Shown here in pieces: positions 7,053 to 50,904 of a stretch of 64,000 nt of DNA. The first letter of the stretch is position 1, and every line of letters starts with the position of its first letter. Source of the DNA: an uncultured Thermotogaceae bacterium (GTDB taxonomy: Bacteria > Thermotogota > Thermotogae > MWEM01). The notes below the pieces were generated by a model. That model saw only the letters and a program-made list of their open reading frames with translations, had not been told where the DNA came from and made no database searches. A program made the translations under genes and the position numbers. The stretch covers positions 9,691 to 73,690 of the forward strand of contig CAZOJQ010000005.1 of NCBI GenBank assembly GCA_964580185.1, written 5' to 3'.

Positions 7053-7102
7053 CAATAGGAAAGATATTTCTTTTCTCGTATTATGGGGGGTGCGAAGCCA
7101 TT

Positions 7103-33900: not shown

Positions 33901-35427
33901 AAACCCGCTGACTTCTTGCCAAATCGAAGAAGAATCGTCCCAATAGGAGATCGTCAAATCGTCGCGGGTGAACAACCCATCGGTATTGATATCGATCAGT
34001 CTTTCATCGACTTGGATGATTCCCATCTCCGACCGGATCGGCTCCATAAAGGTTCGATAGAAGATCTCCGCTTCTCCCGTATAGGTATTGAAATCCTGCA
34101 AACGGATTTCATAGTCGTTGGCTGAACCAGCGGGGGGGAAGTATGTAAAATTATGCGCTTGTGTGCTAAGGAGTTTGGCGCGATTCAGCGCTTGGATCAC
34201 ATCTTCATAGACTTGATCAGCAGTAAAAATATTGGTCGTGATGGTTCGGTTCTGGAATCCATGCGTCAGATCGATCATACCGATGCTCCCGCCTTTGGCC
34301 AACGACACATTTTGCGGATTTACGGTCGATATTGCGTTGACCAAACGGATGGGTCCACTCATGACCGCGTTCTGTCCCGCCAGGCGAAAGAGATTGGGCA
34401 GGCTGGTTCGAGAAGCTTCCATGGTCTTGAAAAAATCGATTCCCGAGATAACGCCGTTTTGGTCAAAACCCGAACGATGGATTAAGTTAATCTTGTCAGT
34501 AAGCATCAGCGCCATTTCATCGTAGCGGTCCAGGTACTTCGGAATGACCGTGTCCCTAAGATTGACGATGGCGCCTAAGTGCCCTCCGGTTACGGAAATT
34601 TTCGTGCTCCGAACGAAAAGATCATAGGTATCCAACGTTCCGGGCCGAGCAGAAGCGGTAAGAGGACTGACATGATCCCCGTGCACAACTACCTGATCTC
34701 CAATATAGACTTCCAGATGGCCATTCGGACCCGTTCGATAGGTAACTCCCGCAATCTCATTCAATCGATCCATCAGCTTATCCCGCTCATCAAGCAAGTC
34801 ATTGGGTTCTGTCTGGATGATATAGGATGATCGGACTTTGTTATTGAGGTCTGCAATCTGCCGCAAGATATTGTTGATCTGATCTACGGAGAGTCGGATA
34901 TCCTGATTGAGGTTTGTTCGCAACTCTTCAAACCGGTTGTAGGTATCTTTCAGCATGACGATGAACGTTTCAGTTTTCGATGCGACCTGCGCGATTGTTG
35001 CTGAATTGAGGGGATCATTCATCACTTCGGCAAAAGAAGACCACATATCGTCAAAGTGTTTCCGAAGGCCAGCTTCTGACGGTTCTGCCAGCAATTGTTC
35101 CATGTAGTGCAGGTTATGGGTCATTTTATCCCAATACGCATAATTCTTGGTGATTTCGCGATATTGAATATCCAAGAACACATCGCGGACCCGTTCCACC
35201 CGTTTGACCATGGATCCTGTTCCGAGCATCATCGGAACACCCGATTGGGTCATCGATGAATAAGGGACTGGAGGAGTGGCGTGGATCTCCGGGCGTTGGC
35301 GAGAAAAACCCGGGGTGTTGACATTCGCAATATTATGGGCGGTGATGCTCATAGCAAGTTTTGAGGTATATGTTCCAAGGACACCCGTATTCAAAATCGA
35401 AAAGATGCTGAAATTACTCATAATCAT
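30940..35427 (-). CDS. flgK: Flagellar hook-associated protein FlgK, very large (1495 aa)
   Basis: N-terminal 'TAHNIANVNTPGFSRQR', 'RVRDVFLD' and 'PNDLLDERD', and C-terminal 'GVSLDEEMSNMIKYQHAFNAAARVI'. About 1000 aa of extra central sequence. Confidence 0.93.
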   Translation of the reverse strand: MIMSNFSIFSILNTGVLGTYTSKLAMSITAHNIANVNTPGFSRQRPEIHATPPVPYSSMTQSGVPMMLGTGSMVKRVERVRDVFLDIQYREITKNYAYWDKMTHNLHYMEQLLAEPSEAGLRKHFDDMWSSFAEVMNDPLNSATIAQVASKTETFIVMLKDTYNRFEELRTNLNQDIRLSVDQINNILRQIADLNNKVRSSYIIQTEPNDLLDERDKLMDRLNEIAGVTYRTGPNGHLEVYIGDQVVVHGDHVSPLTASARPGTLDTYDLFVRSTKISVTGGHLGAIVNLRDTVIPKYLDRYDEMALMLTDKINLIHRSGFDQNGVISGIDFFKTMEASRTSLPNLFRLAGQNAVMSGPIRLVNAISTVNPQNVSLAKGGSIGMIDLTHGFQNRTITTNIFTADQVYEDVIQALNRAKLLSTQAHNFTYFPPAGSANDYEIRLQDFNTYTGEAEIFYRTFMEPIRSEMGIIQVDERLIDINTDGLFTRDDLTISYWDDSSSIWQEVSGFLYDRERGEIMITGADRGYSGYVRIGQWKSEMISISEGIYDDIRTLQNLFPSLRIVNTDTTYDATPGSETLTLDDYTVAPIEYAYNDSLKLYYVTQEALSVNSEVIDANDWININQDTNPLGQDLLNGADFRIRWWDASLPIPDWVVIDPSDITHNAATGELTITDAGFLQALQDNPTVDIQIRRWTSSNVQGGAGGDVTDGVIDLNSALGVPDVDFFSLDFSAGVSEDDFVAVIKEYPLDETEIKIYLESIRSDSMHTDLGYHKMLLGKVHDGLDYQGVFQEELVNSLANMRDLLMVDTDGLLARMGFSTKTQQFLEIGVVQIPDNILEPQWYYEVGPVAPNSTIGFRFPVLDQNEDPTFYREVTFSSKTELRDMIQADEELNKYIEFTQINGKDVLVPKQELIDLQNLDHLHNIEVKDPGSILTPQIFRDEKFRSISFTVPVIHPTTFKNENKTFEIQYRSRDELIYKINNNTELNQYIKAFEHEGRFFVTHTPKLESIANVVTHDEFNVLKSATLNVLDTDAYQNLSNIMYSFAYASSSDHSLVLGAPNQVDLSLVNRLKDFHGKIQLQYATLDDNGGLGFVMEQILPSTQFRVTGFDISKIFDLNEDGIINNLDLKVFGNITGTEYAFRYDPQQKEIVLDGDPGENVDIVFWNQESFNLNGSVGTAYTLDLSENAVSFANPANPPSFLDFKLKVQLPPDQFELTVGRKPIRVDMNQSTLTDLVQMINQQAPSGIQADLTPDQKLVFRAGRTMDFSFGQRLQDGRIVQMYDIKAPTIFLEKMGFMNADPFFSSSWGYNPDIIRNYLDPRSQHHQEIIFDALNIDQRQANGIYNFVNRMALSSQLQANPQLFAVDFGKRMDLNGDWISDVHVPRGGTNVDLVTIMNFSRHSLQMDDGRVSFSDFFGVFVSEMGIEAETAMRMKSNSETMRLSIDNERERVKGVSLDEEMSNMIKYQHAFNAAARVITAVDQMIQRVIDGVGMVGR

Positions 35428-35526: not shown

Positions 35527-38500
35527 CTAGTGAGGATCTTCTTTCATCAATTCAAGAAAAACTTCAACAAGGTTGGGATCAAATTGACTTCCCGAAGATC
35601 GCTTTATTTCTTTGATGGCCACTTCTTTAGACAGAGCTTGCCTGTATGGTCGGTCGCTGGTCATGGCGTCAAATGCGTCGGCAATCGCCAGAATACGGCA
35701 CTCTAAGGGGATTGCCTCTCTGGCCAACCCCAGCGGATATCCTGTTCCATCCCATTTTTCATGGTGTTTCAGGATAAAGTCAGCGATTCCGGATAGATCA
35801 GGGGAAGCAGAAGCAATTCGAAATCCTTTTTCCGGGTGGAGACGCATGATCTCCCATTCTTCCTTCGTCAATGGCCCTTCTTTAAAAAGGATTTGGTCTG
35901 GAATGCCGACCTTACCCAAATCATGCACTTGAGCGAGGAGTTTGAGTGTATCGATCTGGGATTGAGAAAGCCCAATGCGGATGGCCAAACGCTCGCACAG
36001 TTCCGAAAGACGAATGGCATGACCTTGGGTGATAAAATCCCTCTCTCCCAAAGCCGTCATTAAGGTCTCAATGATGTGGGACCGGACACTTGTTCCCTTA
36101 TGCAGTTTCTGCCGCATCATCGCATTTTCAGATTCCTGGAACAGTTCCTCTAACGAACGATCCGGTTCTTGGGCATGAGCCATTCCGATCGAAATACTGA
36201 TCGGCAGATTTGGGTGAGAGTGGTTAAAGGTTTCAGTTGTCGACTCGATCCGTTTTTGAATGAGTTTCGCTGTATCCTCTTCCGTATTGGGAAGCAGGAC
36301 GGCAAACTCATCACCACCCACTCGGGCGATGATATCTGTTTCCCGAAGGCTTTCTTTCAAGATTTGCGCGCACGCTTTCAAGACTTCGTTGCCTTGCTCA
36401 TGACCGAAGGATTCGTTAATCAGCTTTAACCCATCCACATCTGCCGACAGGATGGTAAAGGGTGATACTCCCTTGTTTTCCCAATGGTTGAGTTCCTTTT
36501 CGAAGTAGGATCGGTTGAACAGGCTGGTTAACGAATCGTGACCACTGGAAAACTCTGCTTGCTCTTTGTACGTGACCAAATCGCTGGTATCTGAGATGAT
36601 GGTGGAGTAGTATTGGGCTACTCCGTTTTCATCTTTATGGCACATGATCACTTGGTTTACCGGTATCTCTCGACCCGTTTTATGGATCAGAATCGATTCT
36701 CCTGACCAAACCCCATGGGCAAACGCAGTGGGCAGCGCAGTCTCAAAGATGGAAGGAGATATCCGATCTGGATACAGCTCTCGAATCCCTTTTCCTTGGA
36801 CGGTTTCTTCCTCGTCCCAACCAATGAGGTTCTTTCCTTGCTGATTCATATATACCAAAGAAAAATCCGCGTCCATGAGGGCAATTAGGTCACTGCTCGA
36901 TTCGAATATGGACACGAATAGCGCGTTTTCTTCATCCAGTTTACGTCTTTCCCGAATGGCCAATACTTGGGATACGATAGTCGCAGCTGTGGTAATGAAG
37001 GATTCTTCATCGGGATGCCACTTCCGCTTGGGGCCGATATGTTCCAAGCTGACTACCCCCACAATTTTCCCTTCGGAGGTAATGGACGCGTCCAAGAGAG
37101 AGGTGATTCCCGTGGGAATGAGGTATTTTTCTGCCAATTCATAGGTCCGTTGATCCTGTTGCGCCTCTTCCGCATTGATCCGAGAATCGCGATACAGCGC
37201 TTGAAAGTAGCTTGGGAACATGTCCATCGGCAGGATTGCTCCAGAAAGGTGTTTGCTTTTGGCCTTTTGAAAAAGATCGACACACTGTAACTCTCGTTTT
37301 TCTTCATCGATCAACCAAACGCTCGCCCGCTCGACTTGCATGGAAGAAGAGAGTACCTCGGTCAGCATTTTTGCGGTTGCTTCCATATTTCCGGACGCGA
37401 TCGATGGGTCCAAAAAGAGCTTCACAACCGCCGATCTTTGGTTAAGGGCTCGGGTTTTGTTCTCAATCAATTCGTTTTCACGCGCTTGCAAGATCTTCTC
37501 CGATTCTGACAAGATCTGATTGTTGGCTTCCAGCTGCTCCATCGATGACAACAGCTCTTCATTAGTCGCTTCCAGTTGCTCTTTCATTGCTTGTAACTCT
37601 TCTTGAGAGGCTTGAATTTCCGTGTTTTTTTCGATTAGCGCCTGCTCTGCCTCTCGATGCAATTCGACCTGGCGGTTCAAGGAATGGATCGTGTTCTGAA
37701 GGGTTTGGCTCATGTGATAGAAGCTCCGGTTTAGATGGCGAATTTCTCGAATGTTGCTATGAATAGCCGGTTTTGGGATTTTCCCGTTCGCCAACTCGGA
37801 TGCGGATTGCTCCAACGCTGAGATCGGCCGAGTGACTGCTTTCGAAAGGATAAAACCAACCCCTGCTGCGAAGAAAAGAGCCATTAGAGAAAAAATGAGA
37901 GTAGATCGATTGTTTTGGTAGATCTGACCCATAAAGAGCGATTCCGGTATGGTTGTCACCAAAAACCATCTTGCATCATCAACATGCGGAATCCCATGGG
38001 CTCGGAGATAATGGTTTTCTCCGTTAGTCCGTACTACGGAGCCTTCCAGCTCGAGAATATCTCGGCCCTCTTGTAAGGATGAGAGGACGATTTCTGCTGC
38101 GCCCCGGATCTGAGGGGAGATGCTCTCCAAAGCGTGGATTCTCATCGACCCAATGTCGGGGTTGTTCATAGATATGATCGGTTCAAAGGAGGAGGTTGCA
38201 ATCAGGAACCCCGATGAATCCATGAGAAAGCTTTTTCCTTGAGCTCCTAATCGGGTATTGGATAGGAAGTGATTCAGATGAGACAAAAAGACATCAACCG
38301 AAACAACCCCCATCAATTGCTTGTAATCATCATGCACGGGCATACTCAAGGCAATGGCCAAATCCTGACCAGTTGCCAATAGATACGGTTCATTCCAGAC
38401 AAGTTCTCCGGCTGAAACCGCATTCTGATACCAGGGACGGATCGTTGCATCGAAACCAGGAACGACAGCGATCAGGGATATTTCTTCTCCTTCTTCGCTG

Positions 38501-38931
38501 AGCCCGACTTTACGGAAGGTGCCTTTTTGAAAGCGATCAGTCATAATCGCGTATAAATCTCCTTCAGGCCCTTCCCGACCCGCATTGACCAACCCTCCTT
38601 GGGGATTGCCAAAATAGATACTCGATACTGATGGGAATAGGCGAATCTCTGATAAGAAATATTCCTTCAAAGCATCGGGGTCAGAATCGTCGATCCAGCC
38701 TTTGCCGATTGCAGTGGCATTCATCCGGATTATGTGAGAGGGAACCTCGAAAAAACGATCGATTTGCTGTTTGGTATGAGCAGAGATTTCCTCCATAAGG
38801 GGCATGACTAGATCGCTTACGGCTCTTTGCGCGCTCAAAAAAGAAATCATCCCGACCAAAGCGATGACCAAAACGATCACAAACAAGAACGGGATTGTGA
38901 GTATGGAGCGTAATGAATGGGTTCGACGCAT
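35527..38931 (-). CDS. Membrane sensor diguanylate cyclase/phosphodiesterase (dCache-HAMP-coiled coil-GAF-PAS-GGDEF-HD-GYP)
   Basis: Two TMs flank a Cache-like region ('RPWYQ...WNEPY'). GAF 'RASVWL', PAS, intact GGDEF with RxxD I-site (RETD), and HDLGK and HHEKWDGTGYP motifs. Confidence 0.92.
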   Translation of the reverse strand: MRRTHSLRSILTIPFLFVIVLVIALVGMISFLSAQRAVSDLVMPLMEEISAHTKQQIDRFFEVPSHIIRMNATAIGKGWIDDSDPDALKEYFLSEIRLFPSVSSIYFGNPQGGLVNAGREGPEGDLYAIMTDRFQKGTFRKVGLSEEGEEISLIAVVPGFDATIRPWYQNAVSAGELVWNEPYLLATGQDLAIALSMPVHDDYKQLMGVVSVDVFLSHLNHFLSNTRLGAQGKSFLMDSSGFLIATSSFEPIISMNNPDIGSMRIHALESISPQIRGAAEIVLSSLQEGRDILELEGSVVRTNGENHYLRAHGIPHVDDARWFLVTTIPESLFMGQIYQNNRSTLIFSLMALFFAAGVGFILSKAVTRPISALEQSASELANGKIPKPAIHSNIREIRHLNRSFYHMSQTLQNTIHSLNRQVELHREAEQALIEKNTEIQASQEELQAMKEQLEATNEELLSSMEQLEANNQILSESEKILQARENELIENKTRALNQRSAVVKLFLDPSIASGNMEATAKMLTEVLSSSMQVERASVWLIDEEKRELQCVDLFQKAKSKHLSGAILPMDMFPSYFQALYRDSRINAEEAQQDQRTYELAEKYLIPTGITSLLDASITSEGKIVGVVSLEHIGPKRKWHPDEESFITTAATIVSQVLAIRERRKLDEENALFVSIFESSSDLIALMDADFSLVYMNQQGKNLIGWDEEETVQGKGIRELYPDRISPSIFETALPTAFAHGVWSGESILIHKTGREIPVNQVIMCHKDENGVAQYYSTIISDTSDLVTYKEQAEFSSGHDSLTSLFNRSYFEKELNHWENKGVSPFTILSADVDGLKLINESFGHEQGNEVLKACAQILKESLRETDIIARVGGDEFAVLLPNTEEDTAKLIQKRIESTTETFNHSHPNLPISISIGMAHAQEPDRSLEELFQESENAMMRQKLHKGTSVRSHIIETLMTALGERDFITQGHAIRLSELCERLAIRIGLSQSQIDTLKLLAQVHDLGKVGIPDQILFKEGPLTKEEWEIMRLHPEKGFRIASASPDLSGIADFILKHHEKWDGTGYPLGLAREAIPLECRILAIADAFDAMTSDRPYRQALSKEVAIKEIKRSSGSQFDPNLVEVFLELMKEDPH

Positions 38932-38950
38932 ACGCCTCTCCTTATTGTGT

Positions 38951-38979
38951 TCCAAGAATCTCTGCAAAACGCAGTGCTC
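38951..38979. repeat. 29-bp direct repeat, left copy
   Basis: TCCAAGAATCTCTGCAAAACGCAGTGCTC, 27/29 identical to 39850-39878. Confidence 0.9.
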
Positions 38980-39887: not shown

Positions 39888-41132
39888 TCAATAATGAATC
39901 AATGGTTTTGGACGCAACCGGGCCAACCAAGCGATCAGATTGTCAGGGATTCTTCGTAACCGCGTATTATAAAATGTTGCGATATCATTGTAATAAGAAC
40001 GAGCCAACTGAATCCGATCTTCGGTGTCGATCATCGCTTTTTGCAGGTTCATCACAGAATCGCTGGATTTCAGTTCGGGGTAATTTTCAACCATTGCAAT
40101 TAGCGCCTTCTCTGTCTGTACCGGGCTTTGCACTGCTTCAGCCCTCAATTCTCCGAGGCGGTTCTGGACCGCTTGTTCATGGTTCATCAACCCTCGGATC
40201 ACCGAAACCAATGCAGGAATGAGGTCGGACCGTCTTTGCAGTTGAATTTTGACTTGGGATTCTGCTTGGCGGACTTTTTCATGCAGCCCTTTCAATCCAT
40301 TATACTCTTTCCATAGGTAACCAACGAGCCAAAAACTCGTATAGATCATTGCGGTCCAAAGGTAAAATCGACCATAATTGGGTGGTAAAGGATAGATCAT
40401 CAATTCCCCAAACCAAACAACCAGTTCAGCGATGGCAAGACCGAGAATCGTGAACACCCAGAAATAGATCCCGTAAGCCCGGCTGATCTTTTTTTCGTCT
40501 TTTGATGAGATCAAAAAAATCGGAGCTTTTTTATCGGAAGCAATTTCGGGAGCCACAATATCTTCTCGCTCCCGCGACTGCCCAATGACGTAAAGTTGAC
40601 GATCGATCGGGATGATGGTTTCGAAAAACTTCCTGCGGTGTGTGGAATCCGGTATCTCTAGCGAAGGACCTTTTCCAAAGTACAACGGATCCTTCCAACC
40701 ACAGATAGTGTTCATGACAAGCTCGCCATCAAATGTAGCCCCTTCCGGACGAACTTGGATCGATCCCGTATCATCACAGAGATCAAAACGGACATTTTTT
40801 TGTCCTCCGGCAACCTCTTTCCATCCGCTTTCTACCTTTGTTCGGGTCTGTGTGTTTCCCTTGGCATCTTTATAGGTTTCTGTTCGGGTTCGCCTCCATT
40901 GTTCCTGAATCCGCCAACGATACTGGACGCATTCTGTTTCAGTCAGATGGCTTATAAGAGGCGAGGGGCAATGAACCGTCCCCGAAACCTCTACCAAACC
41001 AATAAATACCCCTTTGGTCTTTGAGGTGGGTGTATCATCAATTAGACGTTTTTTCTTCAAATTAGACATGGCAAACAGAAGAAACAAAACGCCCAATCCC
41101 ATCCCAACTCCGAAATAGACGAGTACCCCCAT
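39888..41132 (-). CDS. Membrane protein: GIDE-like soluble domain fused to a C-terminal LemA domain
   Basis: N-terminal TM; 'LIDDTPTSKTKGVFIGLVEVSG...FDLCDDTGSIQVRPEGA' (GIDE-like); two TMs; LemA block 'QLQRRSDLIPALV...ENYPELKS...EDRIQLARSYYND...YNTR'. Confidence 0.8.
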   Translation of the reverse strand: MGVLVYFGVGMGLGVLFLLFAMSNLKKKRLIDDTPTSKTKGVFIGLVEVSGTVHCPSPLISHLTETECVQYRWRIQEQWRRTRTETYKDAKGNTQTRTKVESGWKEVAGGQKNVRFDLCDDTGSIQVRPEGATFDGELVMNTICGWKDPLYFGKGPSLEIPDSTHRRKFFETIIPIDRQLYVIGQSREREDIVAPEIASDKKAPIFLISSKDEKKISRAYGIYFWVFTILGLAIAELVVWFGELMIYPLPPNYGRFYLWTAMIYTSFWLVGYLWKEYNGLKGLHEKVRQAESQVKIQLQRRSDLIPALVSVIRGLMNHEQAVQNRLGELRAEAVQSPVQTEKALIAMVENYPELKSSDSVMNLQKAMIDTEDRIQLARSYYNDIATFYNTRLRRIPDNLIAWLARLRPKPLIHY

Positions 41133-41148
41133 TGGATGTCTCCTTCCC

Positions 41149-42201
41149 TTACAACAATACCGATGCGATTTGCTTCCGCGTTACGCTTTCCATATCTCCA
41201 CCTGAAAAAAAAGCCCGATACCATTGAAGAGTCTTTTCCAGACTTTGCTCAATAGACCATCTCGGGCGCCAAGGGAGGGAACCCAATGCTTTGGAAATAT
41301 CGAGGCGCAATTGAGGGGCTTCAAAGGGTTGTTTCTTTTGTTCCACTTCATAATGACCCGTTCCCCAAATGTGAATCGCCCTCTGAACAATCGCTTCCAC
41401 CGAAATTGCATCATCATGCTTCGGACCAAAATTCCAAGCTTGCGCATATGCCTGTCCATCCTCGTACAAGGCTTTTCCCAGAAAGAGATATCCCGATAGA
41501 GCATCCAATACATGCTGCCATGGTCTGGTGGCATGAGGGTTCCGAAGCCTTATGGGTTTATCGACTGACAGGCTACGGACAATATCGGGAATCAGTCGAT
41601 CTGGGGCCCAATCGCCCCCTCCGATTACATTTCCCGCTCGAGCGCTCGCAACGGCTGTGTCGGTATCCTGAAAATAGGAACAACGATAAGCCGTGGTAAC
41701 CAACTCGCTGCATGCTTTGCTCGAACTGTACGGATCATGCCCACCCAGCGGATCGGTTTCTCGGTATCCCCATAGTTGATTTTGGTTTTCATAACACTTA
41801 TCGGAGGTAATGTTGACAATTGCGCGGATGGCCGGATGGGATCGGATCGAATCAAGAAGGTTGACCGTTCCCATGATGTTGGTTTCAAAGGTAGTTTTTG
41901 GCTGTTGATATGACAGACGAACGATGGGTTGAGCGGCGAGATGGAAAACCAGATCCGGTCGAAAGGAGTGAATGGCAGCATTCAATCGATCCCCATCCCG
42001 AATGTCGTCAATCCTATGATTCATTTGCTTATCAAGCGAAAGGGTTTCAAAAATGCTAGGTTGAGTATTGGGATCTAGGGCGTAACCCATAACATCCGCC
42101 CCCATCGATAGGAGCCACATGCTAAGCCACGTCCCTTTGAATCCGGTATGACCCGTAACAAAGACGCGTTTTCCTGCATAGAACGAGGCAAGGGTACTCA
42201 T
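41149..42201 (-). CDS. rfbG: CDP-glucose 4,6-dehydratase
   Basis: 'VTGHTGFKGTWL', 'HLAAQPIVR', 'TSDKCYEN', 'DPYSSSKAC', 'ARAGNVIGGGDWA' and 'RPWQHVL'. Confidence 0.96.
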   Translation of the reverse strand: MSTLASFYAGKRVFVTGHTGFKGTWLSMWLLSMGADVMGYALDPNTQPSIFETLSLDKQMNHRIDDIRDGDRLNAAIHSFRPDLVFHLAAQPIVRLSYQQPKTTFETNIMGTVNLLDSIRSHPAIRAIVNITSDKCYENQNQLWGYRETDPLGGHDPYSSSKACSELVTTAYRCSYFQDTDTAVASARAGNVIGGGDWAPDRLIPDIVRSLSVDKPIRLRNPHATRPWQHVLDALSGYLFLGKALYEDGQAYAQAWNFGPKHDDAISVEAIVQRAIHIWGTGHYEVEQKKQPFEAPQLRLDISKALGSLPWRPRWSIEQSLEKTLQWYRAFFSGGDMESVTRKQIASVLL

Positions 42202-42752
42202 TGGCAGTCTTCCTTTCGAAAGGGGCTTTCAAACGCTTCAAACGGCGGAAAGCTTTGATCCCTCTCCGATATGATCGGTTCAGCGACATCCCAGGAATAC
42301 CCGAAAGAGTTCCAAAGAATCCCCGTATCGTGCGCCGGCGAATGGACCGATGTGGTCAGATAACAGACGAGGGTCTCCGGCTCCAGCGATAGGAACCCAT
42401 GGGCCATTCCGGCCGGGATATATACTGCTTTTCGGTTTGATTCGGATAATTCAATTGCAAAAAAAGAACCATAGGTCTTGTAATCGTTTCTGAGATCAAG
42501 AACAACATCTGTGATCGAACCCGTTAGGACAAAAACCAGTTTGTCGTGATGAAAAGGAGGGAGCTGAAAATGCATGCCTCGAATCGTGTTTGGACCCGAT
42601 TTTGAGGCAAAAAATTCGTGGAATTCCGGACGGATTCCCTGTTCATGGAATACCCCCGAATGATACGTCTTTGTAAAGGACCCGCGGGGGTCGCTCGAAT
42701 AAAAGGTTTCGATCACAACCAAACCATCGAACTCTGTTTGCATACATTTCAT
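42198..42752 (-). CDS. RmlC-like NDP-4-keto-sugar epimerase (dTDP-4-dehydrorhamnose 3,5-epimerase family; AscE-like by context)
   Basis: 'DPRGSFTK', 'IRGMHFQ', 'KLVFVLTGSITDVVLDLR' and 'GMAHGF'. Start reset to ATG 42752. Confidence 0.88.
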   Translation of the reverse strand: MKCMQTEFDGLVVIETFYSSDPRGSFTKTYHSGVFHEQGIRPEFHEFFASKSGPNTIRGMHFQLPPFHHDKLVFVLTGSITDVVLDLRNDYKTYGSFFAIELSESNRKAVYIPAGMAHGFLSLEPETLVCYLTTSVHSPAHDTGILWNSFGYSWDVAEPIISERDQSFPPFEAFESPFRKEDCQ

Positions 42753-43699
42753 ATGAATCCATCGCCTTTCTGTCGTGCGGCGGATTGCGTCCAATCGATA
42801 GTCCTTCGCAAAGCCTCCGCAAAGGATACACGGGATTGCCAACCAAGAATCGAATTGGCTTTCGTAGGGTTTGCGCATGCATAAGCGATCTCCTTTGGGG
42901 CATCGGATCCCCAAGATACAGCCACTGGTTTGCGCACTACACTTTCAATGGCAGAAGCGATCTGCCTCAGCGAATGGGTTTCACCCGTGCCGATATTGAA
43001 TGTGTGATAAGAGCCATCCAAAGTAGAGATTTTTTTTGTTGCCATCAAAAAGGCGTTTGCCACATCTTCACTGTACACATAATCCCACTGTTGGGTACCC
43101 GAAGAATGGACTTCGATCATTTCGCCTGAAATGGCAGCTTGGATCATCGAAGGGATGATTTTCCCTTGTCGGTCATACGGTCCAAACGGCGCAAACAGCT
43201 TGAGTGTCATGGCAATGATTCCATAATGGATGGTATAATACTTGAGAATCTCTTCGAAAGATGCTTTCGTGCTTGCGTACAAATTATACGCCCGTTTGGG
43301 ATGTGTTTCATCGATTTTGCTTCTCCCTTGAAGATCATACTCGAAAAAGGTGCCGGTATTAATGAAAAAACGGGTTCGACTACTAGCCATAGCTTGCAAA
43401 AGGAGGGCGGGAAATTCGATATTGGCTCGAATCATCCTCTTTGTATCTTCATCGGAATGTTGTTTCACATAGTCAGTGGCCAGGTGGATCACCAGATCGA
43501 TCTCTTTGTCCAAAAACAAACGGTCCAGTGTTGTTTTTCCTTCAACTACTGTTTCCCAGTGGTCAGCGGGAAAATGATCCAAAAACGCAGTCTTCGATGC
43601 AGGGCGAACATAAAGAATGACATGATGGGTTTCCCTGATCAAGGCTGGCACGAGGGTTTTTCCCAAAAAACCGGTACCCCCAGTGAGCAATATGGTCAT
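42749..43699 (-). CDS. NAD(P)-dependent epimerase/reductase (CDP-3,6-dideoxy-4-hexulose 4-reductase-like)
   Basis: TGGTGFLG and YxxxK (YASTK), 'INTGTFFEY', 'WDYVYSEDV'. ATGA overlap with rfbF. Confidence 0.85.
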   Translation of the reverse strand: MTILLTGGTGFLGKTLVPALIRETHHVILYVRPASKTAFLDHFPADHWETVVEGKTTLDRLFLDKEIDLVIHLATDYVKQHSDEDTKRMIRANIEFPALLLQAMASSRTRFFINTGTFFEYDLQGRSKIDETHPKRAYNLYASTKASFEEILKYYTIHYGIIAMTLKLFAPFGPYDRQGKIIPSMIQAAISGEMIEVHSSGTQQWDYVYSEDVANAFLMATKKISTLDGSYHTFNIGTGETHSLRQIASAIESVVRKPVAVSWGSDAPKEIAYACANPTKANSILGWQSRVSFAEALRRTIDWTQSAARQKGDGFI

Positions 43700-44469
43700 G
43701 ACCAAACGTTCCAAGGAGCTTTTTTGATTTCCCAAAGCCGTTCCAGTTCGTTTTTGTCACGCAAGGTATCCATCGGCTTCCAAAACCCCTCGTGCCGATA
43801 CGCGACCAGTTGGCCTTCCTTGGCCAGCTGTTCCATGGGCGCCCGTTCCCAAATGGATTGATCGGAATCAATCAATGAGAAAACGGAAGGTTCTAGGACA
43901 AAAAAACCGCCATTGATCCACGATCCATCACCTGCCGGTTTTTCGACAAATTCATCAACTGAGCCCGTATCATCGATCCGTAATGATCCAAAGCGTCCCA
44001 TGGGTTTGACCGCTGTTACGGTAGCCGCTTTTCCATGAGCTTTGTGGAATTGAAGCAGTTGATCGATGGCAATATCACCCACTCCATCCCCATAAGTGAG
44101 CATGAATGGTTCATCCCCCACAAAACTTTGGATCCGTTTTATTCGACCACCAGTATTCGTGTACAGTCCTGTATCCACCAAAGTAACCTTCCAGGGATCG
44201 CTCTTCGAGTTATGGATGGCTGTGGATCCACAGGATAGATCGACGGTAATATCGCTCATGTGTTCGAAATAGTGAAGAAAGTACTCCTTAATAACATATC
44301 CCATATACCCAAGGCAAATCACATATTCGTGAAACCCATAGTGCCCATACAGTTTCATAATGTGCCAAAGAATCGGTTTTCCTCCGATTTCCACCATGGG
44401 TTTGGGTTTTCGTTCCGTTTCTTCACTCAGGCGGGTACCAAACCCTCCTGCCAATAGGACAACCTTCAA
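43696..44469 (-). CDS. rfbF: Glucose-1-phosphate cytidylyltransferase
   Basis: 'LAGGFGTRLSEET..KPKPMVEIGG', 'VDTG..TNTGGR', 'LTYGDG' and 'GFWKPMDTLRD'. Confidence 0.96.
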   Translation of the reverse strand: MKVVLLAGGFGTRLSEETERKPKPMVEIGGKPILWHIMKLYGHYGFHEYVICLGYMGYVIKEYFLHYFEHMSDITVDLSCGSTAIHNSKSDPWKVTLVDTGLYTNTGGRIKRIQSFVGDEPFMLTYGDGVGDIAIDQLLQFHKAHGKAATVTAVKPMGRFGSLRIDDTGSVDEFVEKPAGDGSWINGGFFVLEPSVFSLIDSDQSIWERAPMEQLAKEGQLVAYRHEGFWKPMDTLRDKNELERLWEIKKAPWNVWS

Positions 44470-45815
44470 TTTGCTCCCTCCCTTTTTGCAGAGATGGTTT
44501 TGTGTTGGCGAATGGGTTTTTCTGCAAATGCTTTGATAGTATCCACCATATAATCGACCATTTCATCGGTGATTCCCGGATATACTCCAATGAAGAAGGT
44601 ATCATTCATGATTGCATCGGTGTTTTTTAGATTCCCGAATACGCGATACTTGGTTTCCTGATAGGCAGGCTGACGCGTCAGATTGCCGCCAAACAGCATA
44701 CGGGTCATGATCATGTTGGCTTCCAGATGCGAGACAAGGTCATTCCGAGAAAACGGGGCCTGTGGTTTTACCGTAATCGGAAATGCAAACCAAGAAGGAT
44801 CGGAATGGGGTGTGGGCATAGGCAGAACAAGCTGGTCAGATAGAGAATGAAGTCCGTCCCTCATCCGTTGAAAGTTGTGTTTCCGTCTTTCGATAAACCA
44901 TGGAAGCTTTTTGAGTTGGGCAAGACCAATGGCGGCTTGGAAGTCAGTTATTTTCAGATTATACCCTACATGCGAGTACACATACTTATGGTCATACCCA
45001 AAAGGAAGAGTACCATGCTGTTGGGTAAACCGTTGACCGCAGCTGTTGGAGGCCCCCGGATCACAGAAACAATCCCGTCCCCAATCCCGGAAGGACCGGA
45101 CGAGCTTTTCCCATTCAGAGGAACGGGTCAGGACTGCACCGCCTTCTCCCATGGTCATATGATGCGCAGGAAAAAAGCTAACGGTTGCCATTTCCCCAAA
45201 AGTTCCCACGAGCTTGTCTCGAAAGGCGCTTCCCACAGCATCACAGCAATCTTCGATCAGAAAGAGGCCATATCGATTCGCCAAGGCGCCAATTCCATCA
45301 AGGTCGAATGGATTACCCAGCGTATGAGCAAGGATGATGGCTTTTGTTCGGGGTGTGATGGCTCCCTCTACTTCTTCAACAATTGCGTTGTATGTTCCAA
45401 TATCAACATCCACAAAGACAGGAGTTAACTGATTCTGGATGATGGGATTGACCGTGGTGGGAAACCCCGCAGCAACCGTAATCACTTCATCGCCAGGTTT
45501 GGCACGGCGATGCCCGAGAAGCGGGGAGGTAATGGCTGAAAGGGCCAGCAAATTTGCTGATGACCCCGAATTGGTAAGCAAACAACTCTTCAAGCCAAAA
45601 AAATCTGCAAATGAAGTCTCAAAAGCATCGGAGAATCGCCCAGAAGTAAACCACCCATCCAATGCTGCTTCGGTTGCATTGGTGATTTCTTCTTCATCAA
45701 TGACTCGTGCTGCAAAAGGAATGGGCGTCATTCCGGGGATGAACTCCTTTTTCGGTTGAGATTGAGCATACGCTTGTACGGAACGGAGAATCGATTCTCT
45801 TGAATTCATACCCAC
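44466..45815 (-). CDS. rfbH: CDP-4-keto-6-deoxy-D-glucose 3-dehydrase (E1, DdhC/RfbH)
   Basis: NSGSSANL, EDCCD, SFFPAHHMTMGEGG (His in place of the aminotransferase Lys), Fe-S motif GRDCFC...NSCG, and YDHKY. Confidence 0.95.
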   Translation of the reverse strand: MGMNSRESILRSVQAYAQSQPKKEFIPGMTPIPFAARVIDEEEITNATEAALDGWFTSGRFSDAFETSFADFFGLKSCLLTNSGSSANLLALSAITSPLLGHRRAKPGDEVITVAAGFPTTVNPIIQNQLTPVFVDVDIGTYNAIVEEVEGAITPRTKAIILAHTLGNPFDLDGIGALANRYGLFLIEDCCDAVGSAFRDKLVGTFGEMATVSFFPAHHMTMGEGGAVLTRSSEWEKLVRSFRDWGRDCFCDPGASNSCGQRFTQQHGTLPFGYDHKYVYSHVGYNLKITDFQAAIGLAQLKKLPWFIERRKHNFQRMRDGLHSLSDQLVLPMPTPHSDPSWFAFPITVKPQAPFSRNDLVSHLEANMIMTRMLFGGNLTRQPAYQETKYRVFGNLKNTDAIMNDTFFIGVYPGITDEMVDYMVDTIKAFAEKPIRQHKTISAKREGAN

Positions 45816-45822
45816 CTCCGGT

Positions 45823-47022
45823 TCACTCGTTTTTTTTGAATGAAATTTTATTGGAATTGAATATAATTTTAAATATTATGGAAAAATAAATAACGCTGAA
45901 AACAAAAACCATAGTAAACAAAAAAATAAAAGTATAAAAGATTGTTTTCAGGATAGATGATTTGAGCAAAACAGAATGAAAAGATATTTCAATTGCTACT
46001 ATTGTTGAGACAACGGCCAACGGAACCAAGAAGAAGATCGATTGAAAGATGAACAAAGAAGAGACAACAAGAGAAAAAACCAATGTGCCAAGGGATATGG
46101 CCAAATACTCATGGAGCAGATAATAAGGGATCCCATGGGTCAACCAGTTAATCCTCTGGCGAATAAACCCTTTGAAGGTTTCTGGAGCTCGTTCGTGCGC
46201 AAATAGCGTATAAAAGTACTCGATCCGTTGTGTTTTCTCTTTGATCTTTTTGAACAGGTAGTGGTCATCGCTTATGGCTGTCTTATGGTAAGAAAAACCG
46301 CTGACAACCGATTGGCGGACGATATACCCTGATCCTGCAAACACCCATGGCTGCAATCGGAGAACCTTCAACCCCATCTCCATCCATTCATCCACTTCAG
46401 CCAACCGATACGTAAACAGCGGTTTTTGATCGTTTCTACGGGCAAAGTGGAGCACATCGATTTCTTGGGAACCCATCGCGCTGATGGCTTTGCGAAAATC
46501 CCCCCACTCAATAATGGTATCGGCGTCAATATCTACGAAAAAATCCGTATCGACAGTTTGAAAGGCATGCTCACGGGCCAACCCCTTGGGGTGAACAAAG
46601 GTGTCTTTTTTGGGCAGTTTGCGAATGGTTAATCGATCGCTATATTGGGTTTGCAGTTCCATCAGCAATTCATAGGTATTATCAGTTGAGTAATTGTCAT
46701 ACACAACCATCCGTACATTGGACGGAAACTGCATATAATGATGGACTGTCTGCTGAATGGTCGTATTTTCATTGAAACACACCGAAAAAACGCAGATTCT
46801 GAGCGATGGATCCATATGGTCCTTGGCATACGCGGATTTTTCCGTTCGAATTCTCTTCGATAGACGAGATGTCATGATCCAAAGGATGATCAGGAAAACG
46901 GCAATGGCAAAAATCGCCGAAACCAACGGATGGTTGTACCGGGTGAACACGCACAAAAGAATGGACAGGACGCTGATTGCGACTTGACCGACAGCTTTGA
47001 TTCGAATCTGTTTCACTAGCAA
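45823..47022 (-). CDS. Membrane glycosyltransferase family 2
   Basis: N-terminal TMs, 'FNE', 'DNYSTD', DxD (DIDAD), a QxxRW-like 'QRINW', and C-terminal TMs. Confidence 0.8.
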   Translation of the reverse strand: MLVKQIRIKAVGQVAISVLSILLCVFTRYNHPLVSAIFAIAVFLIILWIMTSRLSKRIRTEKSAYAKDHMDPSLRICVFSVCFNENTTIQQTVHHYMQFPSNVRMVVYDNYSTDNTYELLMELQTQYSDRLTIRKLPKKDTFVHPKGLAREHAFQTVDTDFFVDIDADTIIEWGDFRKAISAMGSQEIDVLHFARRNDQKPLFTYRLAEVDEWMEMGLKVLRLQPWVFAGSGYIVRQSVVSGFSYHKTAISDDHYLFKKIKEKTQRIEYFYTLFAHERAPETFKGFIRQRINWLTHGIPYYLLHEYLAISLGTLVFSLVVSSLFIFQSIFFLVPLAVVSTIVAIEISFHSVLLKSSILKTIFYTFIFLFTMVFVFSVIYFSIIFKIIFNSNKISFKKNE

Positions 47023-47056
47023 AGACCTCCTCTATCTTGAACCCAAGTAGGGAAAA

Positions 47057-48196
47057 CTAAAACCCAATCATTGCTTTTCGCAAACGGCCGGGGATTTTCT
47101 GGGCTGCAGTTCCGATTGCATAGGGCACAAAAAGACCGGAACCAGCCAAAATCATAAGGCGAAAAAAAGGATGCAACGGAAACCCAGCCAAACCTTCGAT
47201 CGCCATGAGAATAAACCATTGAAAAGGCAAATGCAATAGGAAGATTAACAGCGAATGTTTGCCGAACCGCATGAGCCATCGGTGCCACAGGGTGGTGATT
47301 CCTCTTGCCATCCGTTCTGTTTGGCGGATGACATAACGCACGATGATGACCAGAAAGACCAATCCAAAGAGAAATCCAGACAAGGTAAACTGGTCAATGA
47401 CCAATACCCCACCCCATTTTCGGAGCAAAAACACCAATTCAAAGGAACCGAATGCCCACAAAATCAAAAACAGAAAGGATTCAAGCCATGATTTTTTTGG
47501 AAGCACTCCGGTTTTTTTCGTCCCAAGATAAAAGCCGAAATAGAAGGCAAAAGCCCAAGCAATCGGGTTGGGATAGATAAAGGCGCTCATGAATGGAAGG
47601 GGAATTTGATCTGGCCGACCCATCCAGAGGATTAGCGTAATGACAGTCAAAAAACTCGCATGGAACATAAGCATGAATCGGGTGGTTTTCCATAATTGAC
47701 CTTCTGATTGATGTCGAATTCGGTAGGCATACCATTGAAAAAAAAGATAAATGCCTAGAAAATAGTATTGCCAGCTGATCATAAAACTGCCCATCGATGC
47801 AATGTACTGGATCAACAAGGGTAAGTTTCCATAAAGACCCCGTCCGGTAAACGGATACCAAAAGGGTTCTTTCAGGATCAGGTAGAGGATAAAAGAAATT
47901 GAGGCCCAGAAGAGATATGGGTAGAGGATGTTTGTCACCCGCTGGATCACTTGAGCCCGCGAAATACGCTTTTTCTTCAACCCTTGACCATACCCCATCA
48001 AGATAACGAAGAAAAACACACAAGGCGCAGTGAGCTTCCCTACGATTCCAGCAACGATTTGCTCGGAAAGCTGGAGATTATCAATAATCAAGGCAATGGA
48101 ATGACCAAGGACGACCATTGAGATGGCCAATCCACGCAACATTGTTTGCGCCCCGAGGCTCAACACTCTGGGTTGGTTGTTCATCGGATCGTTCAT
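47057..48196 (-). CDS. Acyltransferase-3 (OafA-like) membrane O-acyltransferase
   Basis: 'LRGLAISMVVLGH', about 10 TMs, 'WQYYFL', and 'FGKHSLLIFLLH'. Confidence 0.8.
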   Translation of the reverse strand: MNDPMNNQPRVLSLGAQTMLRGLAISMVVLGHSIALIIDNLQLSEQIVAGIVGKLTAPCVFFFVILMGYGQGLKKKRISRAQVIQRVTNILYPYLFWASISFILYLILKEPFWYPFTGRGLYGNLPLLIQYIASMGSFMISWQYYFLGIYLFFQWYAYRIRHQSEGQLWKTTRFMLMFHASFLTVITLILWMGRPDQIPLPFMSAFIYPNPIAWAFAFYFGFYLGTKKTGVLPKKSWLESFLFLILWAFGSFELVFLLRKWGGVLVIDQFTLSGFLFGLVFLVIIVRYVIRQTERMARGITTLWHRWLMRFGKHSLLIFLLHLPFQWFILMAIEGLAGFPLHPFFRLMILAGSGLFVPYAIGTAAQKIPGRLRKAMIGF

Positions 48197-48250
48197 ATCT
48201 TCTTTTCCTCCAAAAGCAAAGCGGGCCGATCCAAATCCCTTATATCGTGA

Positions 48251-49120
48251 TCAATGAATCGGCAGGATAAAGAGGAAGGTAAATCCCACCGAGAATCCTT
48301 GCGATCCAAAAGTGATGCCAATCTCTGGGTCTGGAGGAGAAATCCGAATGGAGTACCCGACAAAGCTTTTCATTACGAAGTTTGGAGTATCCCAGATGTA
48401 CTCCAAGCCAATCCCAATCAGACTGTTTGGATACAACGGAAACCATTCGTACGTATACCGCACATCATCATCAATACCGGTAAAGGCTCTCCAAGAACTC
48501 ATTTGAAAACGGTATTCGCCCATCAGACGAAGAAAAGGATTGACCAATCCTTCTATGCCCATGCCAACGTATGTTTGGCCGATTTCTTGCGATTCGCCTT
48601 CAGGATCAGTCATAAACTGAGGGGATACAAGAATGTTGTACCCTGCTGAAAACCGAAAGGGAGGCAGCGACTTTTTCAATACCATATTCATCGTATACGA
48701 TTCAACAAATGGCCGACTTTGCGATCCTTGCAAGGATAAGGGAACCATCACGGCAACGCTGAACTCAGGCCATATCAATTGCTCGGGTAGGCTGAAATAC
48801 CCCCCCAACCAAGGCCAGCTTCCAATGAGCGTAAGATCGCCTGGAAGGCCCGCTTTGATTCCAATTGAACCAGGGACGATTGCCAAACCTTCTGTATCCG
48901 GTGATATGCGGCTTAGGTTATCGACATCTGCAAAGGAGCCAACAAAAAACTCGATTTGTAGAGGGCGTGGGCTCCGATAATCGTAGGTGAATGAAAAAGG
49001 CAGCATCGGGTTCATCGTCTGCAGGGCATTGATATGGGATTCGATCTGATCGCCCTGAGCGCAAACTATGGGAATCATTAGAACAAACAGTACCAGGATC
49101 ACACCGCACACGTTTTTCAT
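48251..49120 (-). CDS. Secreted protein, predicted outer-envelope beta-barrel
   Basis: Signal peptide ending VCA-Q. Many alternating hydrophobic/aromatic beta-strand-like segments (FRFSAGYNI, YVGMGIEG, LRLMGEYRFQ, IGIGLEYIW, FSVGFTFLF). Confidence 0.55.
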   Translation of the reverse strand: MKNVCGVILVLFVLMIPIVCAQGDQIESHINALQTMNPMLPFSFTYDYRSPRPLQIEFFVGSFADVDNLSRISPDTEGLAIVPGSIGIKAGLPGDLTLIGSWPWLGGYFSLPEQLIWPEFSVAVMVPLSLQGSQSRPFVESYTMNMVLKKSLPPFRFSAGYNILVSPQFMTDPEGESQEIGQTYVGMGIEGLVNPFLRLMGEYRFQMSSWRAFTGIDDDVRYTYEWFPLYPNSLIGIGLEYIWDTPNFVMKSFVGYSIRISPPDPEIGITFGSQGFSVGFTFLFILPIH

Positions 49121-49153
49121 TAAATCGGTCCTTTCGTTCGTTCCGACATAGGG

Positions 49154-50398
49154 TTAATCAATCCGGTGGATAATCAACCCGCTTTTGAGTTTGGGCTCAA
49201 ACCATGTGGATTTTGGCGGCATCACTTGCTCTGCGTCAGCTACATTCAATAGTTCCTCCATGGAGGTGGGAAACAGGGAAAACCCAATATCGGCATTCTG
49301 ATCCACTTCATCTTGAAGCGCATTCAACCCTCGGATCCCCCCGATAAAGGAGATGCGGGAATCAGTTCGGGGGTCTTCGATTCCCAATACAGGGTTGAGT
49401 AAGTGATTCTGAAGAATCGCTACATCTAGAGAAAGAATAGGGTCAGATTCATCAACAAGGGTCTCTTTCGCTTTCAAGCAAAACCACTTGCCTTGGCAAT
49501 ACATGCCGAATTCATGCCGATTCCGTGGAGAATACGGACTTTGGGGCGCCTCATATATGCTGAACCCTTCGGCAATCCGGTTGATCAATCCCTCAAAGCT
49601 CCATCCATTCAGCCCTTTAATAATCCGATTGTAGTCCAGGATCTTTAAGTGGGTGTGTGGGAACGCGACTGCCATAAAAAAATTATATTCTTCCGTACCA
49701 TTATGATTCGGATTTTTGGATGCCATAATGTTGCATACACGTGAAGAAGAAGCGGCCCGGTGATGGCCATCCGCAATGTACAACTCCGGAATCTCATGAA
49801 AGAAGGAGACGATGCGCTCAATCTGTTGAGGGGTTCGAATGATCCATAAAAGGTGACGGGCTTCTTCCGAATCGATGAAATCATAATCCGCTTCGTTGTG
49901 GGTAAGGGACTCGATCAAATCGTCGGTATTTTCTTTGGAACGAAAGGCCAGGAACACTTGGCCCGTTTGCGCCCCAGTCGTGAGGATGTGGTTGACACGA
50001 TCATCCTCTTTTTCCTTGCGAGTAAATTCGTGTTTTCTGATCCGATTCTTCTCGTATTCACGGACCGAAAAACACCCTCCAAAGCCTGTCTGCATTCTGC
50101 CCTGCCAGACTTGCCGATACAAAAATAAAACCGGTTCATCTTCTTGGATCAATATCTGATCGGAGATGAATCGTTCCAGATTCTCTTTGGCTTTTGTGTA
50201 AATTTTTGGGTCGTACGGATGGATTTCTTTGGGCAAATCCACTTCCGATTTGACCACATGCAAAAACGACAAGGGTTTTCCTTGCACCTCGATTCTTGCC
50301 TCGTCAGAATTGATGACATCATACGGTTTTGCAGCTACATCGGCGCTATGCTCCTTTTTGGGACGCAAAGCGCGAAATGGACGAATCAGTGCCATCAT
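49154..50398 (-). CDS. DUF1015-family protein (ParB-like fold)
   Basis: 'IRPFRALRP', 'PYDVIN', 'IRKHEFTRKEKEDDR', 'YIADGHHRAA' and 'MPPKSTWFEPKL'. Confidence 0.9.
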   Translation of the reverse strand: MMALIRPFRALRPKKEHSADVAAKPYDVINSDEARIEVQGKPLSFLHVVKSEVDLPKEIHPYDPKIYTKAKENLERFISDQILIQEDEPVLFLYRQVWQGRMQTGFGGCFSVREYEKNRIRKHEFTRKEKEDDRVNHILTTGAQTGQVFLAFRSKENTDDLIESLTHNEADYDFIDSEEARHLLWIIRTPQQIERIVSFFHEIPELYIADGHHRAASSSRVCNIMASKNPNHNGTEEYNFFMAVAFPHTHLKILDYNRIIKGLNGWSFEGLINRIAEGFSIYEAPQSPYSPRNRHEFGMYCQGKWFCLKAKETLVDESDPILSLDVAILQNHLLNPVLGIEDPRTDSRISFIGGIRGLNALQDEVDQNADIGFSLFPTSMEELLNVADAEQVMPPKSTWFEPKLKSGLIIHRID

Positions 50399-50904
50399 TC
50401 AACCTCCCTTTTCTTTTTTCGAAAGATTTTATGATCCACCTTTGTATGGGTTCCTTTGGAAACCAACAAATCCAATGCTTGTCGAAAAAGCATCGGGTTG
50501 AAAAACTTTCTGCATAGGACCTCATCAATCTCCTCAAGTTCTTCAAGAAGGAGGCTGATTTCTTCCGGACTCTGTATACCGGGTTGTTTGATCCACTGCT
50601 CCATCTGGCGCGAGATCCCTTCAGCCAATCTACGGTATTCATCTCCGATCAACAAGGCCTTTGCTTGGGGTGAAGAATACTGTTCCAAAGAAGCCTTCTT
50701 AACACATTCGGCAGTAAAGGTATAATTCCCGCCAACGGCAGCTTCGATCCCGATCAAGTCTCCTGGCATTGAGAACCCAATAAAAACCGGGGATTTCAGA
50801 GCAAAATAGCACGCGATTATTCCGGATTGCAATCGGTACATATGCTTACCCGGCATCCCTTGAAAAAAGAGGGTTTCTCCCGGTTCTATTCGATGAATTT
50901 CCAT
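50395..50904 (-). CDS. Compact Crp/Fnr-like protein (cNMP-binding fold plus possible HTH)
   Basis: 'GETLFFQG...MYRLQSG', 'PGDLIG', 'TAEC' and C-terminal 'FRQALDLLVSKG'. Confidence 0.65.
   Translation of the reverse strand: MEIHRIEPGETLFFQGMPGKHMYRLQSGIIACYFALKSPVFIGFSMPGDLIGIEAAVGGNYTFTAECVKKASLEQYSSPQAKALLIGDEYRRLAEGISRQMEQWIKQPGIQSPEEISLLLEELEEIDEVLCRKFFNPMLFRQALDLLVSKGTHTKVDHKIFRKKKREVE

Follow-up and report, generated by a model that had tools for sequence, protein, structure and literature searches.

A predicted CDP-3,6-dideoxy-L-hexose cassette without a linked E3 reductase in an uncultured Thermotogota lineage

The window described here, which is the whole 64-kb stretch of DNA that was analysed, carries a cassette of five adjoining genes: rfbH, rfbF, an extended short-chain dehydrogenase/reductase (SDR) gene, an RmlC-like epimerase gene, and rfbG. 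On balance, we favour the reading in which this cassette turns glucose-1-phosphate and CTP into a CDP-3,6-dideoxy-L-hexose, probably for a glycan other than lipopolysaccharide (LPS) that is built by a neighbouring family 2 glycosyltransferase (GT2) and a neighbouring family 3 acyltransferase (AT3), and in which a general ferredoxin or flavodoxin system donates electrons to the E1 dehydrase RfbH. The 3,6-dideoxyhexoses are familiar from the O-antigens of Salmonella and Yersinia, and the E1/E3 pair that removes their C3 oxygen serves as the model radical system. The locus adds a deep, LPS-free Thermotogota lineage to the organisms that are probably able to make a 3,6-dideoxyhexose. The part that appears to be new is the phylum: the pathway is known, and it has not previously been noted in Thermotogota. 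The literature search found no paper that ties rfbH to Thermotogae, and the search on CDP-ascarylose and ascE returned nothing useful.

The five-gene cassette and its predicted route

All five open reading frames (ORFs) are intact and lie on the minus strand in the order rfbH, rfbF, SDR, epimerase, and rfbG (Table 1). The four junctions, as read from the DNA, are 4-nt stop/start overlaps, with TTGA at rfbH/rfbF and ATGA at rfbF/SDR, SDR/epimerase, and epimerase/rfbG, and the cassette is translationally coupled. Judged from the hidden Markov model (HMM) scores, the assignment of three products is unambiguous. RfbH scores 692 bits on the NCBIfam RfbH equivalog (cut-off 423), RfbF scores 420 bits over its full length on TIGR02623 (cut-off 300), and RfbG scores 493 bits on TIGR02622, the model for CDP-glucose 4,6-dehydratase (cut-off 278). 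The ATG at 45809, which is preceded by a GGAGG site and is also the choice of public gene callers, appears to be the likelier start of rfbH than the alternative GTG at 45815 (449 aa; ORF 44466-45815). The intergenic gaps are at most 54 nt throughout 39888-50904, which leaves no room for a hidden gene in the cluster. The GC content of the cassette is that of its surroundings. Predicted promoter and terminator sites were no more numerous than in shuffled sequence, and the window gave no Rfam or tRNA matches. The cassette taken alone is an ordinary, well-annotatable sugar-nucleotide operon.

RfbH aligns end to end with the E1 of Yersinia pseudotuberculosis (PDB 3BCX) at 561 bits, compared with about 185 bits for ColD. 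Its His216 falls in the column of His220 of 3BCX, where histidine replaces the lysine that carries pyridoxal 5'-phosphate (PLP). Its cysteines are arranged as C189-X57-C247-X1-C249-X7-C257, which is exactly the spacing of the published E1 [2Fe-2S] motif, C-X57-C-X-C-X7-C (PMC8987622, citing Agnihotri 2004), and the cysteines of C-X-C-X7-C are kept in 88/88 RfbH homologues. By these residues RfbH is a genuine E1. The ratios of nonsynonymous to synonymous substitution rates (dN/dS) were calculated between the window and L003, the nearest species-level metagenome-assembled genome (MAG). They are 0.083 for RfbH, 0.086 for RfbF, 0.095 for the epimerase, 0.128 for RfbG, and 0.172 for the SDR; those of GT2 and AT3 are 0.082 and 0.139. 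The ratio of RfbH is close to that of the comparison protein CysS (0.071), hence RfbH is maintained as strictly as a tRNA synthetase despite there being no E3 gene nearby.

The epimerase scores 164 bits on Pfam dTDP_sugar_isom and 143.7 bits on the RmlC equivalog TIGR01221, which is below the cut-off of 155.75. Its best match in the PDB is the CDP-sugar epimerase WbcA (5BUV) at 159 bits, whereas the dTDP-sugar RmlC proteins score at most 123 bits. The alignment with Salmonella RfbC places His61, Lys71, Tyr131, and Asp165 in the columns of the RmlC catalytic residues His63, Lys73, Tyr133, and Asp170. WbcA has a cysteine in the column of the catalytic tyrosine, whereas the window epimerase keeps the tyrosine. 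All five sampled relatives of the epimerase (L085, L086, L089, L090, and L091) adjoin both an SDR gene and a DegT gene of the E1 type, in whose product the His and Cys motifs are present, which points to an epimerase subfamily dedicated to E1 pathways. The epimerase also occurs in 6 of the 80 RfbH loci surveyed below, namely those of L003, four Bacteroidales (L006, L015, L036, and L051), and one Clostridium (L034).

The SDR scores 140 bits on Pfam Epimerase and matches no NCBIfam equivalog. It carries the motifs TGGTGFLG and YASTK, and the residue after strand beta-2 is Arg rather than Asp, which suggests the use of NADPH and a reductase role. The SDR is 50% identical to the syntenic SDR of L085, 42% to that of L086, about 30% to those of Bacteroidales, and 24% to Salmonella paratose synthase. 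From the genes of the cassette, the end product could be CDP-ascarylose (L-arabino) or its C4 epimer (L-xylo, colitose-configured).

In the predicted route, RfbF would form CDP-glucose, from which RfbG would form CDP-4-keto-6-deoxyglucose. RfbH would then strip the C3 hydroxyl by means of pyridoxamine 5'-phosphate (PMP) and its [2Fe-2S] cluster, with two electrons from a donor encoded outside the cassette. The RmlC-like cupin would invert C5; on a 3-deoxy-4-keto sugar, the chemistry leaves only C5 epimerisable, so an L sugar would result. The SDR, probably with NADPH, would reduce the 4-keto group to give CDP-ascarylose or the C4 epimer. The sugar would most likely be transferred or polymerised by the adjacent GT2 and O-acylated by AT3 to yield an envelope glycan or glycolipid other than LPS. 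We infer the order of the epimerase and SDR steps, the electron donor, the stereochemistry, and the acceptor.

These results agree with the preliminary description of the locus, which had claimed the five genes joined by 4-nt overlaps, now recovered from the ORFs, the HMMs, and the DNA, and the His-for-Lys change and Fe-S cysteine motif of a true E1, now seen in the alignment with 3BCX and the exact cysteine spacing. That description had also named an epimerase acting only on dTDP sugars as an outcome that would speak against its reading; the closest solved relative is instead the CDP-specific WbcA.

The cassette can be compared with several known systems. The ascarylose module of Yersinia pseudotuberculosis O:5a (ddhD-ddhA-ddhB-ddhC with ascE and ascF) has the same cytidylyltransferase, 4,6-dehydratase, and E1 with the same His and Fe-S motif, and its epimerase and reductase then yield an L-configured 3,6-dideoxyhexose (PMC5399914). 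The window epimerase and SDR are likened to AscE and AscF by their putative roles. However, the window lacks ddhD, its gene order is different (rfbH-rfbF-SDR-epimerase-rfbG), its cassette stands apart from any O-antigen cluster, and LPS is absent from its host phylum. The window RfbF, RfbG, and RfbH are 60%, 50%, and 57% identical to those of the Salmonella rfbFGH(I) system for abequose, paratose, and tyvelose. Salmonella, in contrast, has rfbI directly upstream of rfbF and ends with paratose synthase and tyvelose epimerase to give D sugars, whereas the window adds the RmlC-like epimerase and has an SDR with little likeness to paratose synthase.

SpnQ, the TDP-4-keto-2,6-dideoxyglucose 3-dehydrase of the spinosyn forosamine pathway, is also an E1-type PMP/[2Fe-2S] enzyme with no dedicated E3 in its cluster (PMC8987622). 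It uses TDP-linked 2,6-dideoxy substrates in antibiotic biosynthesis, whereas the flanking rfbF and rfbG fix the CDP-glucose route in the window. The 'rfbH' genes of Streptomyces that lie beside a dTDP-glucose dehydratase gene are 55-58% identical to window RfbH, which is as similar as Salmonella RfbH. WbcA is a cupin that works on a CDP-4-keto sugar, as the window epimerase is predicted to do. However, WbcA belongs to a pathway without E1, whereas the sampled relatives of the window epimerase always occur with E1.

The E3 reductase and the electron supply of E1

The E3 query was Salmonella RfbI (324 aa), which was recovered from the unannotated rfbC-rfbF gap of locus L083. RfbI was searched by phmmer --max against every stop-to-stop window ORF of at least 60 aa, with its self-match of 752 bits as the positive control, and zero matches were obtained in the window at E <= 10. 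The scan of the window for plant-type ferredoxin motifs was negative. The Pfam scans covered almost every window ORF of 150 aa or more, the ones left out being nested within or antisense to annotated genes, and found no Fer2, FAD_binding_6, or NAD_binding_1 protein. The stretches retrieved from L003 (21 kb) and L085 (11 kb) likewise yielded no E3 homologue. L083 itself is a PLSDB record of Salmonella (a 473-kb 'plasmid' with an rfb region) in which rfbI is intact and is missing from the distributed gene table.

The RfbH survey covered the 80 GTDB species-representative loci that are most similar to window RfbH (52-93% identity), and each was searched within 10 kb. At least 5 kb was present on both flanks in 51 of the 80 loci. 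The loci cover Firmicutes, Bacteroidota, Chloroflexota, Acidobacteriota, Actinomycetota, Planctomycetota, Verrucomicrobiota, Cyanobacteria, Proteobacteria, Patescibacteria, and three archaeal MAGs. A canonical E3, with Fer2 and ferredoxin-NADP reductase (FNR) parts, was found within 10 kb in none of these 80 nearest loci (0/80), so the absence of E3 is not special to the window organism. Among the sampled loci, E1 commonly has no E3 linked to it, and none shows the enteric arrangement with a linked E3 (ddhDABC of Yersinia, PMC5399914, or rfbI-rfbF of Salmonella). The preliminary description had reported that ddhD/rfbI is missing, which holds within the 64-kb window, and had implied that this is unusual, which the survey contradicts.

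A short FNR-like gene lies at or just after the stop of rfbH in 5 of the 80 loci (L004, L007, L008, L048, and L080). Another lies between rfbH and the epimerase gene in L090, a contig that was fetched through its epimerase homologue. The products are about 230-320 aa (median 231) and have FAD_binding_6 or FAD_binding_8, some together with NAD_binding_1, and no ferredoxin domain; that of L080 has no Pfam match. These genes are candidate minimal substitutes for E3, and their position beside rfbH in several loci indicates that some lineages do keep a dedicated reductase.

General pairs of ferredoxin or flavodoxin with a reductase can drive SpnQ (PMC8987622). Among the proteins encoded in the window are an aldehyde:ferredoxin oxidoreductase and a polyferredoxin-like protein, which are evidence for a ferredoxin-based host metabolism. 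The donor to E1 is most likely the general low-potential ferredoxin or flavodoxin system of the anaerobic host. The survey raises the testable question of what reduces E1 outside the enterics and points to the minimal FNR-like candidates in some lineages.

Other genes also recur in the surveyed loci. A thiamine diphosphate (ThDP)-dependent enzyme of about 600 aa (TPP_enzyme_N/M/C) is encoded near rfbH in 30 of the 80 loci, including L007, L009, L010, L012, L016, and L020. If these enzymes are read as YerE-like, branched dideoxy sugars of the yersiniose type would be widespread. NeuB-like genes and small GT2 genes, the latter read as GtrB-like, also recur beside the surveyed rfbH. The three archaeal MAGs (L025, L039, and L068, labelled Aenigmatarchaeota, Nitrosotalea, and Methanosarcinales) have E1-type RfbH homologues that are 55-57% identical, together with rfbF.

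The host, the fate of the sugar and the competing explanations

CysS is encoded 5 kb upstream of the cassette on the same strand. Every named relative of this protein is from Thermotogota, with only 50-56% identity outside the genus, so the host is a deep uncultured Thermotogota lineage. L003 carries the label uncultured Thermotogaceae; it has an RfbH of 93% identity and keeps the whole synteny from DUF1015 to LemA. The identical region is also present in a 59-kb ENA contig and in a Logan contig from an activated-sludge metagenome. The window encodes flagellar export and chemotaxis genes, which, together with the aldehyde:ferredoxin oxidoreductase and the polyferredoxin, fit a motile, ferredoxin-based anaerobe. 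Thermotogae have been reported to lack lpx genes (PMC10160955, PMC5007114), so the non-LPS part of the finding stands. The preliminary description had placed the cassette in a lineage not known for LPS and had read it as a possible source of an L-configured 3,6-dideoxyhexose that goes into a non-LPS glycan. The host assignment from CysS and the nearest MAG agrees with the former, and the latter is supported as the natural reading, because the gene identities and the E1 features hold in a phylum reported without lpx.

DUF1015 is followed by the gene of a 289-aa secreted protein, AT3, the membrane GT2, the sugar cassette, and LemA. Three relatives keep this arrangement: L003 at about 90% amino-acid identity, L085 at 50-77% identity and with the AT3 gene duplicated, and L093, a related assembly known only from its GT2 (91% identical). 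GT2 is conserved together with the cassette in all three, and AT3 in L003 and L085. The DUF1015 gene and the cNMP-binding gene were considered as parts of the module and rejected. They belong to a GltX-CysS-cNMP-DUF1015 backbone that is shared by L092, a more distant Thermotogota relative, in which MreB comes next. The order rfbH-rfbF-SDR-epimerase-rfbG is also found in L085 and in a polysaccharide locus of L086, a deltaproteobacterial MAG; the cassette recurs in Deltaproteobacteria, Bacteroidales, and Clostridium.

GT2 has two N-terminal and three to four C-terminal transmembrane segments and the motifs DIDAD, SDD, and QRINW, the last being a degenerate QxxRW. Its stop lies 13 nt before the rfbH ATG. 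The family of this GT2 is very small: of 1.84 billion cluster representatives, 10 match at E <= 1e-30 and 333 at E <= 1e-3. The metagenome scan for GT2 relatives returned just one near-identical locus, and GT2 has no match among PDB sequences. AT3 partners have been reported to acylate a polymer during export (PMC9558356). A multi-transmembrane GT2 adjoining an AT3-only acyltransferase resembles IcaA/PgaC with IcaC, which make poly-N-acetylglucosamine, and OpgH with OpgC. However, the window GT2 has QRINW in place of QxxRW, would use a CDP-dideoxyhexose donor instead of UDP-GlcNAc or UDP-Glc, and has only a distant score against PgaC/IcaA, given below. No equivalents of IcaD/IcaB or PgaA/PgaB were identified at the window GT2/AT3. 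The most economical reading would be a synthase-like or lipid-directed transfer followed by O-acylation. Flagellin as the target of glycosylation has evidence neither way; the window has flagellar genes, none of them adjoins the cassette, and there is no Maf-type transferase.

The 289-aa protein has a signal peptide and an AlphaFold2 (AF2) model with 13 strands (pTM 0.74). The best Foldseek matches of this model are the FapF, COG4313, and OmpG barrels (TM 0.46-0.50). Only 8 sequence clusters of this protein are present among 5.8 billion proteins, and it is syntenic in L003 and L085. Its model makes it a candidate lineage-specific beta-barrel of the toga, and its link to the sugar module is uncertain. 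A role as a dedicated glycan exporter is weakened by a distant homologue in L088 that follows ExbB/ExbD with no sugar genes.

Several points weigh against the favoured reading. The best curated match of GT2, PgaC/IcaA (TIGR03937), is weak at 51 bits against a cut-off of 422. No initiating transferase, Wzx/Wzy, ABC exporter, or WaaL family was found by Pfam among the scanned window ORFs of at least 150 aa. WbcA, the closest solved relative of the epimerase, acts on CDP-4-keto-6-deoxyglucose in a pathway without E1. The SDR falls in an uncharacterised subfamily, so that its putative 4-reductase role and stereochemistry are drawn from context. Expression data were not found, and the only runs with the window sequence are typed as DNA ('DNA?'). 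To our knowledge, no biochemical data exist for any CDP-type E1 without E3. The sequence seen is 64 kb of the genome, the remainder of which could encode an E3 or a minimal FNR-like reductase.

This last point leads to the explanation in which the pathway is the same and RfbH is reduced by a dedicated E3-type reductase, either canonical Fer2-FNR or minimal FNR-like, that is encoded elsewhere. We consider it unlikely, yet of real weight, and the electron supply would then not be unusual. The extent of the examined sequence and the minimal FNR-like genes directly after rfbH in the six loci named above favour it, whereas the window and the L003 and L085 regions gave no E3-like match, and the 80 nearest loci indicate that linkage of E3 is not the rule. 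A far less probable explanation is that RfbF, RfbG, the epimerase, and the SDR alone make a CDP-6-deoxyhexose of the 6-deoxy-L-altrose or 6-deoxy-D-gulose type while RfbH stays idle for lack of E3. AltA/AltB of Yersinia and WbcA/WbcB work in this way. The E1-free pathway of WbcA (PMC9095892) is in line with this, as are the L-altrose modules of Yersinia, which consist of ddhA, ddhB, and an epimerase/reductase pair (PMC5399914). An idle RfbH is, however, difficult to reconcile with purifying selection as strong as that on CysS, with catalytic and Fe-S residues that are all kept, and with the translational coupling of rfbH to rfbF. The epimerase evidence, with every sampled close relative beside an E1 gene and the RmlC tyrosine kept, also argues against it.

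RfbH could also act without any reductase, either by a ColD-like, PLP/glutamate-dependent 3-dehydration or by a transamination that gives a 4-amino sugar. We regard this as the most improbable of the explanations, although the His-for-Lys change is also found in ColD and SpnQ transaminates when no reductase is supplied (PMC8987622). ColD lacks the [2Fe-2S] cysteine motif that RfbH and all of its 88 homologues keep, the alignment scores place RfbH with E1 rather than ColD, and E1 itself is reported to have shown no transaminase activity (PMC8987622). The favoured reading, with a general ferredoxin or flavodoxin donor, may also be extended. In most bacteria and archaea, including the lineage of the window, a housekeeping ferredoxin or flavodoxin of low potential might pass electrons straight to the CDP-type E1 dehydrases, with the enterobacterial E3 as the exception. 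In this lineage, the rare PgaC/IcaA-like GT2 might polymerise the sugar and AT3 might acylate it. The LPS-free toga would then contain an O-acylated poly- or oligo-(3,6-dideoxy-L-hexose), as a glycan or a glycolipid, possibly exported via the adjacent lineage-specific barrel. This extension is speculative, and we hold it to be rather doubtful.

Neighbouring features and minor observations

Table 1. Coordinates of the cassette genes, the neighbouring genes, and the reductase genes of other loci.
Feature	Sequence	Position	Strand	Remarks
rfbH/ddhC, E1: PMP- and [2Fe-2S]-dependent CDP-4-keto-6-deoxyglucose 3-dehydrase	window	44466-45809	-	447 aa
rfbF/ddhA, glucose-1-phosphate cytidylyltransferase	window	43696-44469	-	TTG start; TIGR02623
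Extended SDR, putative NADPH-dependent CDP-4-keto-3,6-dideoxy-L-hexose 4-reductase (AscF-like role)	window	42749-43699	-	316 aa
RmlC-like cupin, putative CDP-4-keto-3,6-dideoxyhexose 5-epimerase (AscE-like role)	window	42198-42752	-	184 aa
rfbG/ddhB, CDP-glucose 4,6-dehydratase	window	41149-42201	-	TIGR02622
Membrane GT2 glycosyltransferase, likely CDP-sugar user	window	45823-47016	-	Pfam Glycos_transf_2, Glyco_trans_2_3
AT3-only membrane acyltransferase, likely glycan O-acylase	window	47057-48196	-	Pfam Acyl_transf_3, 57 bits; eight hydrophobic segments
Secreted all-beta protein, putative toga beta-barrel	window	48251-49120	-	289 aa; signal peptide
Polyferredoxin-like 4Fe-4S protein overlapping the start of aldehyde:ferredoxin oxidoreductase	window	7052-9290	+	
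GIDE-LemA fusion membrane protein	window	39888-41132	-	
FlgK	window	30940-35427	-	1495 aa
Multi-sensor protein	window	35527-38967	-	1146 aa
Second membrane GT2	window	5466-6620	-	
FNR-like gene, candidate minimal E3 substitute	L004	11299-11994		
FNR-like gene, candidate minimal E3 substitute	L007	11299-11994		
FNR-like gene, candidate minimal E3 substitute	L008	11299-11994		
FNR-like gene, candidate minimal E3 substitute	L048	11320-12099		
FNR-like gene, candidate minimal E3 substitute	L080	11910-12851		
FNR-like gene, candidate minimal E3 substitute	L090	6265-6957		
rfbI	L083	5115-6089		intact

The GIDE-LemA fusion gene lies directly downstream of rfbG with a 16-nt gap, and it occupies the same place in L003 and L085. 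The window encodes a giant FlgK, a flagellar hook-associated protein, in which a very large insert separates the FlgK_D1 domain from the rod C-terminal domain. The multi-sensor protein has dCache, HAMP, GAF, and PAS domains and both GGDEF and HD-GYP outputs. The second membrane GT2 is HpnB-like (141 bits, below the cut-off) and adjoins the genes of an AnmK kinase and a protein with a beta-lactamase fold.

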